Shown: positions 1,422-29,077, counted from the first letter of the stretch. The stretch: DNA of 46,723 nucleotides from a virus (IMGVR_UViG_647533159_000003); one strand, 5' to 3'. A program made the numbers and translations. Notes: a model not told the origin generated them from the sequence alone.

Positions 1422-3896
1422 TTAAAAATCAGCCTGATTCGGGATCAGTTTTTGCCAGATTGCTGAAACGTATTTCGCCTGGTGACGGGCATCATCCAGC
1501 GCATGGTGGCGCACGCCTTCAAATGGAATAACTGTTCTGGCATCGAAGTCGATAGTTTTTCCCAGTTCAACGATTGTACGTACATCGCGATCGTTGTAGT
1601 AACGCCACGGGCAGGGGATGTTCAGGCGTTCGTACGAGGTTCGTAAAATAGTGTTGTCGAAAGTTGCACCATTGCCCCATACCTGAACGAATTTTTCATT
1701 CGAGTACTCATTGATGAATTCCCGAAATTGAATAAGAGCGTCAACCAGTTTTACCTGATCAACTAAAATTGCAGATCTGGCTTCGCTGGACTGAGCAAGC
1801 CACCATTCGATGGTGGAACCATCAGGTACAGCCCCCGTGTCCATAGCGTCAACCAGGCTGATAACGATATAAAATGTTGGCCCGATTTCCCCGGTCTGCG
1901 GATCGAAGAACACAGCACCAATAACCACGATGGGGGCATTACTTTTTTTACCCATCGTTTCAAGGTCGATCATCAGGTGGTACCACACTCTGCTGGTGGA
2001 TGTGCTTTTATGATGACCATTCACATTAATTAAGGGATCTGCCGCCTCACCAGTTTCACTATCGCTGGCGTGGTCCTGAGCGCCGCTAGTGTCCCCCTTG
2101 TGTGGATGTTCAGCGCCTTCCATTTCCTCCGGATCATTTTCCTGAACTTCAACCTGATTCTCTTCATCGAATGTTTCCTGATATGTTGCGTTGCCCATCA
2201 CCGCGCCACAATCAGGGCAGTTGCCGCCACCGCTCTGACCGCAGGCGGTGCAGGTTTTTTCTGGTTCTTGTTGCGCTACTGGTTCGGATTGTTTCGTTTC
2301 TGGCTCGTTTTGTAACGCATTTTGGCTGTTTTGTTCCGCTTTCTGGTCGTTCTGTTCCGTTTCTTGCTGGTTCTGGTACACAGAATCGCGGGTTTCAATC
2401 CCCTTCACCCATTTCGGATCATTCGGGTCGCTAATCCCTGCAACAAATTCTCCGCGAGAGGCAGCAAGCAACTGATTGGCGTCAGGCTGGCTGACTGCCT
2501 GCATAATTTTGTTTACTTCGTCAGCGGTAACTTTTACCGGCTCTGGTTGTGCGGTCGTGTCAGATGCACCAGTATTTTGTTGTGAACCTGAGTATGTGCC
2601 GTTTTTGCGGGCAAAATATTCTTCTTTCGTGATTTCAGTAGCCCCGGCAGCCAGCGCCTTATTCAGACCAGAAAGTTTGTTTGCACGACCATATTTTTCG
2701 CCATCCTTATCGGTGAAGAGGAAGTAGAACGGCCCCTCACGCTCTACAGATGGTTCAGTTTCCAGCGCGCTTTCATTTTTTTTGGTATCAGATACTTCAG
2801 TTTCCACTGCATCAGTTTGTGCTGCTGACGGCTGGAGAATATCAGCAGTGTTCTGGTCTGTTTCTTCATCCTCAAACACGCCCTTTGTCGCCAGGTATTC
2901 AGTGATGTATTTGTTCAGTGCCACGGGATCCTTGTGAATGTCGATCGGACGCTCACGGACAAGGCCAAAAATAGTCTGACGGTCATAGCGAATGGCATCA
3001 GGCTGTTTGCGCATTGATGCGGAAATACGCTTCCAGTCTTCGCGATCGTTCTCGATAACTTCATTTTTTGCCCAGCGATGGATGCTGCCGTCAATGTTTC
3101 CGGCATCAATGTCACTAGGCCACAGAGCGTAGGCCAGTTCATCATCCAATGTTTTCCATGTCTGCTTGTATTCGCGACGAATAACTGCAGTGACAGGGGG
3201 GATTTTTTCTGCTGAGTTTTCAGTGTGCTGTCGGTTGACTCTGGTGCGGGCGAGATCAACAACAGACGTGTATTTTCCAGTCTCTTTGCGCTCCGCGTCC
3301 TGCCGTTTTTTCCAGTTACGTAATTCAGCCTGAATTTCGGGCCATTTGGCACCCGGCTTACATTTGTGTTTACCCCATCCGATAGCGAACAGTTTGCGTT
3401 CCGGATACATAGCGTTAATTTCTGGTGTTTTCATCAGTGCTTCAACGATATGCCCGTCGAATGTCGCCACGTCTTCCTGCAGTAACTCCTGTGCGCTAAT
3501 CACCATATCAACGGTGATGTTTTCACATGTACCGAACTTAACCAGGACCGCGTTCTGTACTTCAAGGGACAGCTTGTCAAAATTGACGTTCATCGGATCG
3601 GATTCTGGTTCGACCGGAATAAAGGAAGCGGATTCCTCATCCCAGCGGTTTTCCTGCATATATTCGGTATCCCAGGAGTCGATAGCAGGGCGGGGCATGC
3701 CGGGTTTATCCTCGCAGACAAGAAATTTATAAGCGCAGTCCTGAGCAGCCGGATATTGCTCCAGGAATTGCCAGGTAAATTTGGCACGGGCGCGGCGTTC
3801 GTCACCGGCTTCAATGGCAGTGGCTACAGCAACTGCACCTTCTTCCTTTATTGCCTGTTCGTCCGGAATGGCGGCGCAAATAAAGACTTTACTCAT
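1422..3896 (-). CDS. Putative exonuclease (C-terminal DEDDh/DnaQ-like 3'-5' exonuclease domain; acidic Q/E-rich linker and Cys4 zinc ribbon)
   Basis: 824-aa ORF in the exo/bet position; C-terminus carries DLETMG ... HHALDDA motifs; central [16 protein letters not shown]. Confidence 0.7.
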
Positions 3897-4932: not shown

Positions 4933-5142
4933 ATGCCAAACAGACCAATACATCCGCTTATTGAAAAACAGATTGAATGTCTGGTTAATCAACTCAGGCA
5001 ATCAGGGTTATTAAAAAACCATTCAGAGTTAAGGCTCACGAAATCAGCATTTGACGATAAATTAAACAATGTGCTTTATAATGGCATCATTGATTACAAT
5101 CGTGGTGTTGGTCGTCGTGGCCCTGCTGGCACCGCCCTGTAA
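4933..5142 (+). CDS. Hypothetical 69-aa protein, convergent partner of the 212-aa gene
   Basis: ATG 4933 preceded by GGAGGA (4923-4928); AT-rich; stop codon abuts the stop of the minus-strand gene. Confidence 0.35.
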   Translation: MPNRPIHPLIEKQIECLVNQLRQSGLLKNHSELRLTKSAFDDKLNNVLYNGIIDYNRGVGRRGPAGTAL

Positions 5143-5781
5143 TTACCAGTCAATCCAGAGCGGATAGTGTTCAGCGTAAATATAGCTGTATACATCAAGG
5201 TTGTATTTGTGGTCTGCTTTTAACAGGTCACAAATACATGTTGCTGCTTCCAGGGCTGAAGCTCTGTTACTGAACATCCACGTCGCAACATTCCAGCTAT
5301 TCTCTGTATCCCATTCTTTCGCAAGAGTTGACACTCTGAAGGATCCGTTGGCGTTGCCATCAAATACTTCTGTTTCCAGGTTCTTAAGCAATGCCTGATG
5401 AACTTTTGTCAGGTATTCAGCCGGAATCTTGCCACGGATTCTGATGAGATTGTCATAAACAAACATATTTCCCGCGTATGGCGATTTTTCTTTCTTGTTT
5501 TTTAAACCAGCATCATGAGCAAACTGATCAATTTCTTCTTTCATTGGTTTCGTATTGATGTTTTGCGCTGTCGTTTCTGCAATTTTCTTTGCCACACTCT
5601 CTGAGTCGTGTTTATTTACAGACGAACAGAAATACAATCCGGTAAACGCATCGCGCACATTACGAGCCATATTATCAATGTCTTTCTTCGTTGCAGATTC
5701 TAATTCAACTTCGGACAGACGTTGACAAAGTGCATGCGCTGCAATCACCTTGATTTCTTTTGGTAACTCTTTAAATTCCAT
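5143..5781 (-). CDS. Hypothetical protein, 212 aa (accessory gene in early-left operon)
   Basis: Long clean ORF, AT-rich relative to its flanks, no motif recognised. Confidence 0.7.
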   Translation of the reverse strand: MEFKELPKEIKVIAAHALCQRLSEVELESATKKDIDNMARNVRDAFTGLYFCSSVNKHDSESVAKKIAETTAQNINTKPMKEEIDQFAHDAGLKNKKEKSPYAGNMFVYDNLIRIRGKIPAEYLTKVHQALLKNLETEVFDGNANGSFRVSTLAKEWDTENSWNVATWMFSNRASALEAATCICDLLKADHKYNLDVYSYIYAEHYPLWIDW

Positions 5782-7527: not shown

Positions 7528-7598
7528 CTGACAATATTCATACCGGATCGCTTCCGGCAATTCGTGAATAAAAAGATTCGGTATCAGAAGAGGTGAGT

Positions 7599-8546
7599 AT
7601 GGCTAACGCCTGGCTCAGATTATGGCATGACATGCCAAATGATCCTAAGTGGCGAACAATTTCCAGGGTGTCAGGACAGCCAATCGCAACAGTGATGGCT
7701 GTGTATATCCACCTTCTGGTGAGCGCGTCACGAAATGTCACGACATGTCACGGCGTGTCACTACGTGGTCACATTGATGTCACGACGGAAGATTTAGCAA
7801 GTGCGCTTGATGTGACGGAAGAAGTAATTGATTCAATTTTACAGGCAATGCAGGGGCGGGTACTTGATGGAGATTTAATCTCTGGATGGGAAAAACGCCA
7901 GGTACTGAAAGAGGACAATGGCAACGTTTCACAAACCGCGAAATCCCCGGCAGAGCGCAAGAGAGCGCAGCGCGAGAGGGAAAAATTACGAAAACAGAAT
8001 GAGGGGGGTCATGACGAGTCACGCATATGTCACGACATGTCACGACGAGTCACGACAGATAAAGATACAGATAAAGAATTAAACCCCACACATAACGCGC
8101 GCGTGTGCGAGAGTGCTCCGACCAGTGAGTCGAATGGCGTGCCGTTGCAGGCAGCGGAACCTGATTACCTGGAAGGCCTGAGCGAACCCATCGGGAAATT
8201 TCCGATGACTGATGGCTGGCATCCGTCGCCGGATTTTCGACGGCGGGCAGCTCTGTGGGGAGTGGCTCTGCCGGAGCCGGAATTTACACCAGCTGAACTT
8301 GCCGCCTTCCGGGACTACTGGGCAGCGGAGGGCAAAGTGTTCACGCAGGTTCAGTGGGAGCAGAAATTCGCCCGTCACGTAAATCACGTCAGGGCGCAGG
8401 TTAAACCAGTCAGCAAGGGGGTAAACCATGCAGCAACGCCAGGTGGCACCGCATCACGGGCAGTTCAGGAAATTCGGGCAGCACGTGAGCAGTGGGAACG
8501 TGAAAACGGATTTATCAGCGACGGAAACGGCGTGGAAGCTGTGGGA
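7599..8546 (+). CDS. Replication initiation protein (DUF1376-type N-terminus, DnaT-like C-terminal region); 3' end lost in N run
   Basis: MANAWLRLWHDMPNDPKWRTI... N-terminus; iteron clusters embedded in the gene; AGAGG SD before ATG 7599. Confidence 0.7.
7724..7788 (+). repeat. Iteron cluster 1 (about 6 copies of a GTCAC(G) motif), putative ori
   Basis: gtcacgaaatgtcacgacatgtcacggcgtgtcactacgtggtcacattgatgtcacgacgg. Confidence 0.6.
8008..8056 (+). repeat. Iteron cluster 2 (about 5 copies of GTCACGAC-like motif)
   Basis: gtcatgacgagtcacgcatatgtcacgacatgtcacgacgagtcacgac, about 220 bp downstream of cluster 1. Confidence 0.6.
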
Positions 8547-9391
8547 NNNNNNNNNNNNNNNNNNNNNNNNNNNNNNNNNNNNNNNNNNNNNNNNNNNNNN
8601 NNNNNNNNNNNNNNNNNNNNNNNNNNNNNNNNNNNNNNNNNNNNNNNNNNNNNNNNNNNNNNNNNNNNNNNNNNNNNNNNNNNNNNNNNNNNNNNNNNNN
8701 NNNNNNNNNNNNNNNNNNNNNNNNNNNNNNNNNNNNNNNNNNNNNNNNNNNNNNNNNNNNNNNNNNNNNNNNNNNNNNNNNNNNNNNNNNNNNNNNNNNN
8801 NNNNNNNNNNNNNNNNNNNNNNNNNNNNNNNNNNNNNNNNNNNNNNNNNNNNNNNNNNNNNNNNNNNNNNNNNNNNNNNNNNNNNNNNNNNNNNNNNNNN
8901 NNNNNNNNNNNNNNNNNNNNNNNNNNNNNNNNNNNNNNNNNNNNNNNNNNNNNNNNNNNNNNNNNNNNNNNNNNNNNNNNNNNNNNNNNNNNNNNNNNNN
9001 NNNNNNNNNNNNNNNNNNNNNNNNNNNNNNNNNNNNNNNNNNNNNNNNNNNNNNNNNNNNNNNNNNNNNNNNNNNNNNNNNNNNNNNNNNNNNNNNNNNN
9101 NNNNNNNNNNNNNNNNNNNNNNNNNNNNNNNNNNNNNNNNNNNNNNNNNNNNNNNNNNNNNNNNNNNNNNNNNNNNNNNNNNNNNNNNNNNNNNNNNNNN
9201 NNNNNNNNNNNNNNNNNNNNNNNNNNNNNNNNNNNNNNNNNNNNNNNNNNNNNNNNNNNNNNNNNNNNNNNNNNNNNNNNNNNNNNNNNNNNNNNNNNNN
9301 NNNNNNNNNNNNNNNNNNNNNNNNNNNNNNNNNNNNNNNNNNNNNNNNNNNNNNNNNNNNNNNNNNNNNNNNNNNNNNNNNNNNNNNNNNN
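8547..9391. other. Run of 845 N (assembly gap or masked sequence)
   Basis: Uninterrupted n characters; length not a multiple of 3, so the reading frame is not preserved across it. Confidence 0.99.
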
Positions 9392-9540
9392 CATCGCTGC
9401 ATATGGCAAACCGCGAACTGCGTCGGGCGAAAAGTCATGTCCAGAAGTGGGAGCGAGTCTGCGCCGCGCTGCGGGAGCTGAATAAATATCGCGATATTGT
9501 CGCCCAGCTTTGCCAGGAGGAAACCAGTGAGCAACATTAA
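9392..9540 (+). CDS. 3' end of a gene truncated by the N run (or an independent 45-aa ORF from ATG 9403)
   Basis: In-frame ...SLHMANRELRRAKSHVQKWERVCAALRELNKYRDIVAQLCQEETSEQH ending at TAA 9538-9540. Confidence 0.3.
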
Positions 9541-16878: not shown

Positions 16879-16954
<76 letters not shown>

Positions 16955-16957
16955 TAT

Positions 16958-17032
<75 letters not shown>

Positions 17033-24221: not shown

Positions 24222-24431
24222 ATGGTTTATACGCATGAAATGCTTTGTGATGCCCGTCGGGCATTACATGAACTGATGATCGGACGTGCTGTGGTTTCCG
24301 TCAGCAAGGACGGGCGTCAGGTTCAGTATTCGCGGGCGACGATTGGTGAACTGCGTCAGTATATTGAAGAGCTGGAAAGTGCGCTGGGTGTATCCGGACG
24401 GCGTCGCGGCCCGGCAGGAGTGGGGCTGTGA
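24222..24431 (+). CDS. Head-tail joining protein (lambda W-like)
   Basis: 69 aa; ...DARRALHELMIGR...RRRGPAG resembles lambda gpW; GGAGG SD. Confidence 0.8.
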   Translation: MVYTHEMLCDARRALHELMIGRAVVSVSKDGRQVQYSRATIGELRQYIEELESALGVSGRRRGPAGVGL

Positions 24432-25999
24432 ACGGGGAACTGGTGGATCTTCACGGGCAGCCACTGCGGCAGAGTATGGGGTATTCCGGAGGGGGTACCG
24501 GATTTGGCGGGCAGCTTGCGGAATGGCTGCCTGCACCGGAAAGTGCCGACGTGGCGCTCTTACCTTCCATTCAGCTGGGTAACGCCCGTGCGGATGATCT
24601 GGTCCGCAATAACGGTATTGCCGCAAACGCCGTTGAAATTCATAAAGACCATATCGTCGGACACATGTTTCGTCTGAGTTACCGGCCCAACTGGCGCTGG
24701 CTGGGGATGTCGGAAGCCGATTCACATGTCTTTATTGAAGATGTTGAGGCAGCGTGGATGGAATTCTGCGATCCGGTGTTTGGTTCGATGGATGTGGAGG
24801 GGCGTCGCTCGTTTACCGAATTTATTCGTGAAGGGGTGGGCGTTCATACATTTAACGGTGAAATTTTTGTCCAGCCCGTATGGGATACGGAATCCACGTC
24901 ATTATTCCGGACGAAATTCAAGACCATCAGCCCGAAACGTGTCAGTACACCCGGTTATGGTACCGGCGATCGTTTTATGCGTGCCGGGGTGGAAATCAAC
25001 CGGTACGGAAAAGCACTGGCCTACCATGTTCAGGAAGATGACTGGCCCGGTTACGGTGTCAGCAACTGGACGCGGATTGCGGCGACGCTGCCCTCCGGGC
25101 GACCGGGAATGATCCATGTGTTTCAGCCGCAGGAGGACGGGCAGACGCGCGGGGCCAACCAGTTTTATTCTGTCATGGAGCGTCTCAAGATGCTCGACAC
25201 ACTGCAGGCCACGCAACTGCAGTCGGCGGTGGTGCGGGCGATGTATGCCGCGACGATTGAATCCACGCTGGATTCGGAAAAAGCATTTGAATATATCGCC
25301 GGGGTGGGAGATGGCGGTAAAAATCCCCTGAACACCATCATGAAAGGCTACGCGCGTTATTACGCCACCAATACGGTAAAGCTGGGTGGGGTCCGTATTC
25401 CGCATCTTTATCCGGGGGATTCACTGAATCTGCAGACAGCGCAGAATGCAGATAATGGTTTCTCTGAACTGGAAAAGGCGCTGTTACGTTACATCGCTGC
25501 CGGACTGGGGGTGTCCTATGAACAGCTTTCCCGTGATTATTCACAGGTCAGTTATTCCAGTGCCAGGGCATCCGCCAATGAGTCGTGGCGGTATTTTATG
25601 GGCAAACGAAAATTTGTGGCCAGTCGACTGGCATCACAGATGTTTGCCTGCTGGCTGGAGGAAGCCCTTATTCGCGGTGTGATCCGCCCGCCGAAATCCC
25701 GTTTTTCATTCTGGGAGGCCCGTTCCGGATGGTGTCGTGCCGAGTGGATTGGTGCCGGTCGCATGGCGATTGATGGCCTTAAGGAAGTGCAGGAAGCGGT
25801 GATGCGTATTGAAGGTGGTTTAAGCACGTACGAGAAAGAGCTGGCCCTGATGGGCGATGACTATCAGGAGATTTTCCGTCAGCAACTGCGTGAAAGCCAG
25901 GAGCGACAGGCAGCGGGTCTTCCCCGCCCCATCTGGATTAAGGACACGTTTCAGCAGCAGATCCGACAGACAACGGGAGAAAAAGGCGATGCGTCGTAA
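24428..25999 (+). CDS. Portal protein (lambda B-like)
   Basis: 523 aa; ...GGGTGFGGQL...NARADDLVRNNG...WDTGGID... similar to lambda gpB; start overlaps the W stop. Confidence 0.9.
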   Translation: MNGELVDLHGQPLRQSMGYSGGGTGFGGQLAEWLPAPESADVALLPSIQLGNARADDLVRNNGIAANAVEIHKDHIVGHMFRLSYRPNWRWLGMSEADSHVFIEDVEAAWMEFCDPVFGSMDVEGRRSFTEFIREGVGVHTFNGEIFVQPVWDTESTSLFRTKFKTISPKRVSTPGYGTGDRFMRAGVEINRYGKALAYHVQEDDWPGYGVSNWTRIAATLPSGRPGMIHVFQPQEDGQTRGANQFYSVMERLKMLDTLQATQLQSAVVRAMYAATIESTLDSEKAFEYIAGVGDGGKNPLNTIMKGYARYYATNTVKLGGVRIPHLYPGDSLNLQTAQNADNGFSELEKALLRYIAAGLGVSYEQLSRDYSQVSYSSARASANESWRYFMGKRKFVASRLASQMFACWLEEALIRGVIRPPKSRFSFWEARSGWCRAEWIGAGRMAIDGLKEVQEAVMRIEGGLSTYEKELALMGDDYQEIFRQQLRESQERQAAGLPRPIWIKDTFQQQIRQTTGEKGDAS

Positions 26000-27605
26000 T
26001 TTATCGCATATTGCCGCCATGGCATTTAATGAGCCGCTTTTACTGGAACCCGCCTATGCGCGGGTTTTCTTTTGCGCGCTGGGTAAAGAGATAGGGGCCG
26101 GCAGCCTTGCCGTTCCTCAGCAGGCTGTTCAGCTTGATGCTGATGGTATGCAACTGGCGGTGACTGACTATATGGCGGGCGGTCAGCGTCCGGCAAAGAG
26201 TTACCAGGTGAAGAATGGCATTGCCATTCTGCCGGTGAGCGGCACGCTGGTGCATAAACTGGGTACCCTGCGGCCTTACTCCGGCATGACAGGCTATGAC
26301 GGTCTGACTGCTCGTCTTCAGATGGCGGTGAATGATCCGGATGTGCGCGGCATTTTGCTGGATATCGACAGCCCGGGCGGTCAGGCTGCCGGGGCGTTTG
26401 ACTGTGCTGACATGATTTACCGTCTGCGGGAACAGAAGCCCGTGTGGGCGCTGTGTAATGACATGGCCTGTTCAGCCGCCATGTTGCTGGCGGCAGCCTG
26501 TACCCGTCGGCTGGTCACGCAGACGGCAAAAATTGGTTCGATTGGCGTGATGATGGCGCACACCAGTTATGAGAAACAACTGGCACAGGAAGGGGTGGAC
26601 ATCACGCTGATTTACTCCGGGCAGCACAAGGTTGACGGCAACAGTATTCAGGCATTGCCGGCAGGTGTGCGTGCAGATTTTCAGCGCCGTATTGATGAGG
26701 CCCGCCGGATGTTTGTCGACAAGGTGGCGCTTTATACGGGGCTGAGTTCAGAGGCAGTGATGAATACCGAGGCTGCCGTTTATGACGGTCAGGCAGGCAT
26801 TGATGCAGGCCTGGCTGATCAACTGATTAATGCTGCAGATGCCGTTGAAGTGATGGTTTCTGCACTGAATGACTCTGTTACGAAGGAGAATGCAATGACT
26901 GTTAAAAATCTCACCGTTGCTGAAGCGGTGGCCCAGGAAAATCAGCGCGTGATGGGGATCCTGAATTGTCAGGAGGCGAAAGGGCGCGAGCAACTGGCGC
27001 AAATGCTGGCAGGTCAACCTGGAATGACGGTTGAGCAGGCGAAAACGTTGCTGGCTGCTGCGCCGGTTGCCGGTACTGACAGCACGGGTGATCAGATTAT
27101 GGCGCTGCCGGAAGCAAAGGGGCGTGAACAACTGGCACAGATGCTGGCAGGTCAACCGGGGATGACGGTGGCGCAGGCGAAAGCGTTTCTGGCGGCAGCC
27201 CCTGCTGCCGGTGCTGCAGGCGCAGGCGATCAGATTATGGCGTTACCGGAAGCAAAAGGGCGTGAACAACTCGCGCAGGCGCTGGCTGAACAGCCGGGAA
27301 TGACCGTTGACCAGGCCAAAACGTTACTGGCGGCGGCACCGGTTGCGGGCTCTGCAAGTGTCGGCGATCAGATTATGGCGCTGCCGGAGGCGAAAGGGCG
27401 CGAACAACTTGCACAGGCACTGACAGAACAGCCAGGAATGACGGTGGCGCAGGCGAAAACGCTGCTGGCAGCCGCGCCGGCGGCATCGCAACCGTCACAG
27501 GAAACACTTTTTGATCGCTTTATGGCACAGCATGCTGCCAGTGCGGTTTCCGGTGGCGGAACTGCCGGGCGCGGGGAGGAAGACCTGCTGATGAGTATGC
27601 CGTAA
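25989..27605 (+). CDS. Head maturation protease/scaffold (lambda C/Nu3-like, S49 family) with four C-terminal tandem repeats
   Basis: N-terminal ...LSHIAAMAFNEPLLLEPAYARVFFCAL... matches lambda gpC; C-terminal 46-aa unit repeated four times. Confidence 0.85.
   Translation: MRRNLSHIAAMAFNEPLLLEPAYARVFFCALGKEIGAGSLAVPQQAVQLDADGMQLAVTDYMAGGQRPAKSYQVKNGIAILPVSGTLVHKLGTLRPYSGMTGYDGLTARLQMAVNDPDVRGILLDIDSPGGQAAGAFDCADMIYRLREQKPVWALCNDMACSAAMLLAAACTRRLVTQTAKIGSIGVMMAHTSYEKQLAQEGVDITLIYSGQHKVDGNSIQALPAGVRADFQRRIDEARRMFVDKVALYTGLSSEAVMNTEAAVYDGQAGIDAGLADQLINAADAVEVMVSALNDSVTKENAMTVKNLTVAEAVAQENQRVMGILNCQEAKGREQLAQMLAGQPGMTVEQAKTLLAAAPVAGTDSTGDQIMALPEAKGREQLAQMLAGQPGMTVAQAKAFLAAAPAAGAAGAGDQIMALPEAKGREQLAQALAEQPGMTVDQAKTLLAAAPVAGSASVGDQIMALPEAKGREQLAQALTEQPGMTVAQAKTLLAAAPAASQPSQETLFDRFMAQHAASAVSGGGTAGRGEEDLLMSMP
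26950..27500 (+). repeat. Four tandem copies of a 138-bp (46-codon) unit inside gene C
   Basis: Unit starts about 26973, 27111, 27249, 27387 (exact 138-bp period); encoded peptide (D)QIMALPEAKGREQLAQ.LA.QPGMTV.QAK.LLAAAP.AG. Confidence 0.9.
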
Positions 27606-27643: not shown

Positions 27644-27979
27644 ATGATTAAAACCACCACGGAAAAGCGCGCGGATGTGCACATTTTTGCCGGAAACGAT
27701 CCGGCGCATACCGCAAAAGCCACCAGTGGTATCAGTGCCGCCATGCCTGCACTGACGCCACTGATGCTGGATGACGCCACCGGTAAACTGGTGGCATGGG
27801 ATGGTCAGAAAGCCGGAACGGCAGTGGGCGTGCTGGCTCTGGCGCTTACCGGGACCGAGTCCATGCTGACGTACTACAAAAGCGGTACATTTGCCACTGA
27901 GTCGCTGGTCTGGCCTGATTCTGTGGATGCGGTGAAAAAAGCCAACGCATTTGTGGGAAGTGCCATCAGCCACGCCTGA
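27644..27979 (+). CDS. Head decoration protein (lambda D-like)
   Basis: 111 aa; ...DPAHTAKATSGISAAMPALTPLMLD...KLVAWDG...YYKSGTF... resembles lambda gpD. Confidence 0.85.
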   Translation: MIKTTTEKRADVHIFAGNDPAHTAKATSGISAAMPALTPLMLDDATGKLVAWDGQKAGTAVGVLALALTGTESMLTYYKSGTFATESLVWPDSVDAVKKANAFVGSAISHA

Positions 27980-28048: not shown

Positions 28049-29077
28049 ATGGGGTTATTTACCACGCGTCAGTTACTCGGGTACACCGAGCAGAAAGTGA
28101 AATTTCGTGCGCTGTTTCTGGAGCTGTTCTTTCGTCGCACGATCACTTTCCATACTCAGGAAGTCATGCTGGATAAAATTACCGGCAAAACACCGGTTGC
28201 GGCGTATGTGTCTCCGGTGGTGTCAGGCAAAGTGCTGCGCAGCCGTGGTGGTGAAACCCGCGTGTTACGTCCCGGTTATGTAAAACCAAAACACCGCTTT
28301 GATTATCAGCAGGCAGTGGAACGTCTTCCGGGGGAAGATCCGTCCCGTCTTAATGACCCGGCCTACCGCCGCCTGCGTATTCTGACGGACAACCTGAAAC
28401 AGGAAGAGCAGGCGATTGTGCAGGTGGAAGAAATGCAGGCGGTCAGTGCCGTTCTGCAGGGTAAATACACCATGAGCGGCGAGCAGTTTGAGACAGTGGA
28501 AGTGGATTTTGGGCGTTCTGCCGCCAATAACATTACGCAGGCTGGCGGACGCGAATGGTCAAAGCAGAATGCTGACACCTTTGATCCGACGCATGATCTG
28601 GATGCGTACTGCGATTTTGCTTCCGGCACCATCAATATCGCGATTATGGACGGCACGGTCTGGCGTATGCTGAACGGTTTTAAACTGTTCCGTGAAAAAC
28701 TGGATACCCGCCGTGGCTCCAAATCTGAGCTGGAAACGGCACTGAAAGACCTGGGTTCCGTGGTTTCCTTTAAGGGCTGGTACGGCGATCTGGCTGTCGT
28801 GGTGGCGAAGACAACGTATGTTGACGAAAACGGGGATGAACAGCGTTATCTGCCGGAAGGTACACTGATTCTGGGAAACACTCAGGCGGAGGGCGTCCGT
28901 TGCTATGGCGCAATCCAGGATAATCAGGCGCTGAGTGAAGGGATCACCTCTGCGATTCGTTATCCGAAACACTGGGAGGAAGTGGGGGATCCTGGTTGCG
29001 AATATACCATGACGCAGTCTGCGCCGTTGATGGTGCTGCCGGATCCGGATGCGTTTGTGGTGGTTCAGGTGAAATAA
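28049..29077 (+). CDS. Major capsid protein (lambda E-like)
   Basis: 342 aa; ...PGYVKPKH...VEEMQAVSAVLQGKYTM...KLDTRRGS..SELETA.KDLG... collinear with lambda gpE. Confidence 0.9.
   Translation: MGLFTTRQLLGYTEQKVKFRALFLELFFRRTITFHTQEVMLDKITGKTPVAAYVSPVVSGKVLRSRGGETRVLRPGYVKPKHRFDYQQAVERLPGEDPSRLNDPAYRRLRILTDNLKQEEQAIVQVEEMQAVSAVLQGKYTMSGEQFETVEVDFGRSAANNITQAGGREWSKQNADTFDPTHDLDAYCDFASGTINIAIMDGTVWRMLNGFKLFREKLDTRRGSKSELETALKDLGSVVSFKGWYGDLAVVVAKTTYVDENGDEQRYLPEGTLILGNTQAEGVRCYGAIQDNQALSEGITSAIRYPKHWEEVGDPGCEYTMTQSAPLMVLPDPDAFVVVQVK

Follow-up and report, generated by a model that had tools for sequence, protein, structure and literature searches.

In the prohead protease gene of a lambdoid E. 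coli prophage we find four tandem, in-frame copies of a 46-residue module, placed in the region that the protease would share with a scaffold protein nested in the same gene. Our preferred reading, which we consider probable though well short of certain, is that these copies form an old and selected array, a multivalent beads-on-a-string version of lambda Nu3. The window (the whole stretch of DNA that was analysed, 46,723 nucleotides) opens with a lambda-type integrase, which indicates a lambdoid prophage of at least 46.7 kb; counted from the integrase, this span is lambda-sized. The gene that holds the array and its neighbours are as follows.

24428-25999, lambda-family portal gene (PF05136), upstream neighbour of the C-like gene
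25989..27605, plus strand, gene C-like prohead protease/scaffold gene (538 aa, S49 peptidase family)
26424..26858, plus strand, S49 peptidase domain (aa 146-290 of 538; Pfam PF01343 envelope)
27644-27979, gpD-like decoration gene (PF02924, HDPD), downstream of the C-like gene
28049-29077, gpE-like major capsid gene (PF03864, Phage_cap_E), downstream of the C-like gene

The C-like gene can be recognized as one of the lambda C/Nu3 type by its S49 domain, by its place between a lambda-family portal gene and gpD/gpE-type genes, and by a scaffold module followed by a C-terminal tail, as aligned with lambda and phage 21. Its product matches PF01343 at 1.6e-33 (116 bits against a Pfam cutoff of 24.9) and the PHROG family phrog_53, 'head maturation protease', at 2e-217, and it can be aligned over its whole length with phage 21 gp5 and lambda gpC. 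Ser162 and Lys214, which we take from what is known of S49 peptidases to be the catalytic residues, are invariant in an alignment of eight sequences. The gene likely starts at 25989, its first 11 nt lying within the end of the portal gene. RefSeq gives the homologues no other label than 538-aa 'S49 family peptidase'. The identical protein is public on 21 contigs, and its 90%-identity cluster has 826 members.

The portal ORF, taken at its longest in the window, has 523 aa and a GTG start. In close relatives (including STEC005) RefSeq gives 507 aa, and the true portal start is probably 16 codons downstream of the longest-ORF start. Between the early and late regions of the prophage, at 16879..17032, lie adjacent tRNA-Thr (TGT) and tRNA-Gly (TCC) genes. 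An 824-aa minus-strand ORF (1422..3896), the C-terminus of which carries an Rv2179c-like 3'-5' exoribonuclease domain, contains a 21-bp tandem repeat of 5 copies (73% matches) at 2268..2372. A plus-strand ORF with a DnaT DNA-binding domain (7593..9485) contains 3.9 copies of a 10-bp repeat, GTCACGACAT, at 8018..8057, which may be origin iterons inside a replication gene.

Anatomy and age of the repeat array

Tandem Repeats Finder detects one array at 26972..27480, with a period of 138, 3.7 copies, 79% matches and a score of 564. No other tandem repeat in the 46.7-kb window comes near it, the only two others scoring 80 and 50. The EAKGREQLAQ motif begins at 26973, 27111, 27249 and 27387, which are exactly the unit starts, with an in-frame period of 138 bp, that the original prediction had given. 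The four 46-codon units occupy 26952-27503 in an ORF that ends at 27605; the PF01343 match and the portal, gpD-like and gpE-like neighbours bear out the earlier placement of the repeats in the C-terminal, scaffold-coding part of a lambda C-type S49 protease gene. The units and the segment that follows them are listed below.

26952..27089, plus strand, repeat unit 1 (MGILNCQEAKGREQLAQMLAGQPGMTVEQAKTLLAAAPVAGTDSTG), ortholog of the single lambda unit and of phage 21 Tri1
27090..27227, plus strand, repeat unit 2, internal, with no close counterpart in the three-unit relative ERR4320027
27228..27365, plus strand, repeat unit 3, internal
27366..27503, plus strand, repeat unit 4, the last unit, conserved in position
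27504..27602, plus strand, conserved C-terminal tail TLFDRFMAQH...EEDLLMSMP, common to protease and scaffold

Among the four units 27 of the 46 residues are invariant, and variability falls mainly in the last eight residues, a linker rich in Ala, Gly, Ser and Thr. The tail follows the pattern F..FM..H...G...LLMSMP, which is conserved across eight aligned proteins including those of lambda and phage 21.

The copies had been described as near-identical, which is true of the protein cores and untrue of the DNA, where the four units are only 64-78% identical in pairwise comparison. Units differ at 20-27 of the 46 third codon positions, against 5-15 at positions 1 and 2. Estimated by the Nei-Gojobori method, dS is 0.7-2.0 for every unit pair, that is, synonymous sites are near saturation, while dN in the 31-residue core (EAKG...AAAP) is 0.04-0.11 and core omega about 0.02-0.13. 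In a megablast search of 5426 complete E. coli genomes, 104 have a collinear repeat region of the same length, with identities of 86-99%. Judged from these substitution patterns and this distribution, the array is genuine and old, and purifying selection on its 31-residue core is strong.

For each pair of units in the window the longest exact match is just 8-23 bp, and RecA-dependent recombination needs a minimum exact match of roughly 23-27 bp. With matches as short as these, mis-assembly of reads is implausible and homologous unequal crossing-over should be inefficient. The original prediction had warned of assembly collapse, and the array could in principle be an artefact in which a single-copy segment was mis-expanded or a repeat was collapsed or expanded. 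Tandem repeats do carry a generic risk in short-read assemblies, and we found no specific support for an artefact here. Units that differ at 22-36% of DNA positions, with exact matches of at most 23 bp, allow reads to be placed unambiguously, and the same architecture is present in about 100 independent complete genomes, besides the 21 contigs with the exact protein. We give an artefact virtually no credence.

It had also been proposed that the array is a recent expansion and that the site is an unstable hotspot of recombination. There is some evidence of this kind from relatives: copy number varies in the lineage, units 2 and 3 of RM13745 are 90% identical in DNA, adjacent units are near-identical in P0101 and in Cronobacter P0002, and units 1-3 of STEC005 share exact matches of 66-85 bp, which indicates that the STEC005 expansion is recent. 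The array of the window, however, has the dS values given above for each pair of its units, exact matches that do not exceed the RecA minimum, and a four-unit state that is kept across alleles diverged to 86% identity. For the window we hold a recent expansion at an unstable site to be very unlikely, and neither part of the proposal stands.

A further alternative is that the repeat acts at the level of DNA or RNA, as regulator sites similar to the CII sites of phage 21, or through an overlapping antisense gene. The phage 21 record OL657228 annotates pattern-matched CII sites inside gene 6, and a 135-aa minus-strand ORF at 26748-27155 overlaps the repeat region. The substitutions between units, however, fall chiefly at third positions of the plus-strand frame, and neither a constrained DNA sequence nor a constrained antisense frame would allow such a pattern. 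The CII-type pattern TTGYN6TTGY does not occur in the repeats, and its window-wide count of 8 against 10.8 expected is at chance level. Such a role is extremely unlikely.

The predicted nested scaffold and its module

Upstream of unit 1 there is an internal start that is preceded by a ribosome-binding sequence.

26883..26888, plus strand, Shine-Dalgarno sequence AAGGAG, 6 nt upstream of an internal ATG at 26895
26895..27605, plus strand, predicted nested in-frame scaffold gene (analogue of Nu3 and of phage 21 gp6), 236 aa

A 236-aa scaffold is predicted to be translated from 26895, made up of a 19-residue lead, the four 46-aa units (78% of the protein) and a 33-residue tail. This ATG corresponds in position and by homology to the start annotated for phage 21 gene 6, for which GenBank M81255 also annotates a ribosome-binding site. 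An equivalent Shine-Dalgarno sequence and Met are present at the homologous site in RM13745, OkiPb, STEC005, ERR4320027, phage 21 and lambda, and in 13 of 13 further species loci in which the start position could be located. Four stretches of the predicted product are matched by each of two PHROG families, phrog_8399 ('head scaffolding protein') and phrog_8940 ('capsid assembly protein'). The original prediction had raised the possibility of an internal Nu3-like start and had suggested that the array lengthens a scaffold-type protein; AAGGAG, six bases and the ATG provide a candidate for such a start, and its homology to that of phage 21 gene 6 agrees with the suggested lengthening.

In lambda (J02459) the equivalent of the conserved Shine-Dalgarno sequence and ATG is at nt 5342, cAGGAGGgcgaATG, and would give a 131-aa product that begins 'MTKETQ'. 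The nested start is conserved family-wide at this site, which is other than that of the classical lambda Nu3 annotation; the latter places the start at nt 5132 ('MDATRQ', 201 aa), has no Shine-Dalgarno sequence, and corresponds to an Ile codon in the window (26691). Yet another lambda Nu3 start is annotated in OM418625, with a product of 233 aa. From this comparison, the mutually inconsistent lambda annotations may be wrong.

The module has the consensus I..L.EA.GRE.LA..LA..PGMTV..AK..LAAAP, and a family-wide version, GILALPEAKGREALAQALAETPGMTVEQAKAILAAAPK, could be drawn from 173 units in diverse representatives, over which E7, A8, G10, R11, A15, L18, A19, A29 and L33 are each at least 90% conserved. 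By alignment, the module is the one element conserved throughout the lambda-type protease-scaffold family. No model in Pfam or NCBIfam covers it, and Pfam gives only sub-threshold matches in the repeats, leaving a conserved module in an annotation gap.

An AlphaFold2 model of the 236-aa product, built on a 48-sequence alignment, has a mean pLDDT of 76.6 and a pTM of 0.31. In this model every unit consists of a short helix followed by a helix-turn-helix, and the module probably packs as a three-helix mini-bundle. Units 1, 3 and 4 have a pLDDT near 90 and the linkers a low one, a pattern expected for independently folded beads on flexible linkers. Modelled by itself, a single unit again gave a helix-turn-helix at a pLDDT of 61 and was left out of the fold search. 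Lambda gpNu3 is reportedly partly disordered, and if so the units may fold only on binding.

A sequence search of PDB chains with the scaffold part returned no solved homologue, the best match being ribosomal protein L12 at E 0.09. Foldseek against PDB and BFVD gave nothing at E <0.001, with just S49/prohead-protease homologues at probabilities of 0.84-0.99, and fold matches were weak (Z at most 5.0). The motif.PGMTV..A..LL had brought to mind the helix-hairpin-helix motif of DNA-binding proteins, for which there was no significant match: T2SSK scored 19.8 bits against a Pfam cutoff of 24.2, and XPF-ERCC1 and RuvA had E >1 in Foldseek.

Copy number among relatives and possible roles of the units

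Lambda-type genes contain a single unit and phage 21-type genes three; in the lineage of the window there are three, four or five. The comparison of repeat number among related prophages for which the original prediction had asked thus shows variation, and its statement that lambda gpC carries the segment once agrees with both the alignment and the unit matrix. In the window lineage, three units are found in the Logan contig ERR4320027 (protein P0003, 492 aa), four in the window, RM13745 and OkiPb strains, and five in E. coli STEC005 (584 aa, gene at 1880-3634), the protein of which is present on 15 contigs; STEC306 and STEC308 have the same match pattern as STEC005. A megablast search of sequenced phage genomes found no four-unit array, and the best match, phage 21, covered the protease part and unit 1 only.

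Searched with a unit HMM, 117 of the 120 best protein homologues have three copies; these proteins have about 500 aa and belong to Salmonella, E. coli, Shigella, Cronobacter, Citrobacter, Trabulsiella and Klebsiella. The other three have four stretches: P0001, which is of the window lineage, P0101, which is of the phage 21-type lineage with a fresh duplication, and P0054. In a scan of one genome per species, the informative loci had one unit in 24 cases, three in 5, and two or four in none. A profile search of 1.84 billion representatives gave 394 proteins at E <=0.001; among the top 150 of these, a stricter per-domain count assigned one copy to 135, two to 10, three to 4 and none to 1. The long proteins among the matches are S49 peptidases with the module near the C-terminus.

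Some of the matched sequences are irregular. P0054, a 323-aa 'putative phage capsid assembly protein' of a complete E. coli genome, is a frameshifted four-unit copy in which in-frame and out-of-frame segments alternate; it is a pseudogene or else reflects sequencing errors. In P0176, P0185 and P0203 an S49 protease and the unit are fused to tail protein U, tail protein L or tape-measure domains; these are probably degraded prophages or chimeric gene calls. Low-coverage contigs assigned to implausible hosts (Neobacillus, Kitasatospora, Shewanella, Leeuwenhoekiella and an Akkermansia MAG) have the same 1290-nt match at about 54% identity and look like lambda-type contaminant DNA; the one that was checked (L023) has a single unit.

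When the DNA of the units is compared in a matrix, the first unit and the last are everywhere positional orthologues, and it is the internal units that expand and contract. Unit 1 of the window is 87-96% identical to unit 1 of its relatives and is the unit closest to unit 1 of phage 21 (73%) and to the lambda unit (65%). Unit 2 is 97% identical to OkiPb unit 2 and 86-88% to units 2 and 3 of STEC005, and unit 3 is 99% identical to STEC005 unit 4 and 87-88% to the internal units of ERR4320027 and RM13745. Unit 4 is 100% identical to STEC005 unit 5 and 85-86% to the last unit of ERR4320027 and RM13745. The nested products would have 120-140 aa with one unit, 190-202 with three, 233-236 with four and 282 with five, and the E proteins encoded beside them are all lambda-type, of 341-342 aa. 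As read from these comparisons, copy number shifts by unequal recombination in the lineage and does not track capsid type.

A link between copy number and capsid size, which had been put forward as a possible correlate, was considered and rejected: whether a prophage has three, four or five units, its major capsid protein is of 342 aa and 97.4-98.2% identical to that of the window, unchanged in length and sequence across these carriers.

A possible role for the array can be proposed from these observations. Each module would be a small helical unit with a conserved polar patch (EA.GRE), followed by a flexible linker rich in Ala, Gly, Ser and Thr. The modules probably serve as scaffold interaction units that bind the inner face of the gpE-like coat shell, each other, or both, by analogy with P22 gp8; the partners reported for lambda Nu3 are E, C, B and Nu3 itself (PMC3224144). 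The full-length protease, carrying the same module string and the common tail, would be co-targeted into the assembling procapsid, and the linkers are plausible sites at which the S49 protease could cleave for scaffold removal. Extra copies would add valency and reach rather than alter capsid geometry, and three to five copies go with essentially one major capsid protein. Changes in copy number come about through unequal recombination among internal units, with the first and last units fixed.

The units might instead be a passive spacer or tether, length alone setting how far the protease domain or the scaffold N-terminus reaches from the capsid wall. The length of the nested product does vary widely (from 120-140 to 282 aa), and lambda-type genes have a long low-complexity linker at the place of the extra units. 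A spacer is disfavoured, however, by the strong conservation of the core, seen in the 27 invariant residues and low omega among paralogues and in the nine positions conserved over 173 units, with just the 8-residue linker free to vary. We therefore regard the spacer as quite improbable.

It could also be that the conserved C-terminal tail, rather than the units, is the coat-binding element, and that the units are modules for scaffold self-association or for recruiting the portal. In herpesviruses and in the HK97 protease, targeting to the capsid is the task of the extreme C-terminus. Conservation of the tail extends to every member of the family, lambda included, and Nu3-Nu3 and Nu3-B interactions are reported for lambda. 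Nothing decisive speaks against this arrangement, which is a variant of our preferred reading, as the latter leaves the partner of the modules open; we consider it unlikely.

A more general proposal would make the 46-residue unit the mini-domain by which all lambda-family scaffolds bind coat and crosslink capsomers, with a valency that is freely tunable, under selection, and no determinant of capsid size. This is speculative, and we judge it unlikely. If true, the occurrence of one, three, four and five copies beside a near-constant major capsid protein would show scaffold valency to be a tunable, selected parameter, and valency might set the kinetics or fidelity of assembly, or provide escape from satellites or defence systems directed at scaffold or protease. 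The copy series is a natural one, with capsid proteins 97-98% identical among carriers of three to five copies, and together with the conserved start it offers a genetic handle on the partner of the Nu3 module and on the role of scaffold valency or length in T=7 assembly.

Comparison with known systems

Tandem three-helix-bundle modules of Gram-positive bacteria (protein A domains, the GA module and Embp/Ebh repeats) resemble the array as an architectural analogy only; their scores are too low for homology, and their biology is unrelated to that of the scaffold proposed here. In P22 gp8, a largely flexible scaffold, the coat is recognized by a small helix-turn-helix element. The window unit is likewise predicted by AlphaFold2 to be a helix-turn-helix, and its binding to coat is putative; the PDB search and Foldseek gave no sequence or significant fold match between the unit and the C-terminal domain of gp8. 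Unlike the window, P22 gp8 has one such domain, at its extreme C-terminus, and no fused or nested protease.

Lambda gpC and gpNu3 resemble the window in that an S49 protease and an in-frame scaffold have a common C-terminus and the head genes B, D and E are the same. Lambda shares with the window both the unit (MGILNCEEAHGREEQARVLAETPGMTVKTARRILAAAP) and the conserved tail, but has one unit, following a 36-residue low-complexity insert, where the window has four, and the window does not conserve its annotated Nu3 start (nt 5132).

In phage 21, gene 5 and gene 6 (M81255, and the further record OL657228) are the same gene in the same head-module position with the same nested Shine-Dalgarno sequence and ATG. 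The protease part is 73% identical to that of the window, and a homologous 46-residue unit is repeated in tandem and in frame. M81255, a record of the phage 21 head operon from the early 1990s, annotates a 'Tri1 box', a 'Tri box' and a 'Tri3 box' as repeat_regions in gene 6, 'function unknown'; a literature search found no discussion of Tri boxes, which we know here from the GenBank feature table alone. The two differ in that phage 21 has three units and a nested product of 200 aa, whereas the window has four and 236 aa, in unit DNA that is only 53-73% identical, and in the polymorphism of the window lineage, with three, four or five units. Taken at the level of sequence homology, the array of the window is a four-copy allele or variant of the phage 21 Tri-box repeat and not a new kind of element.
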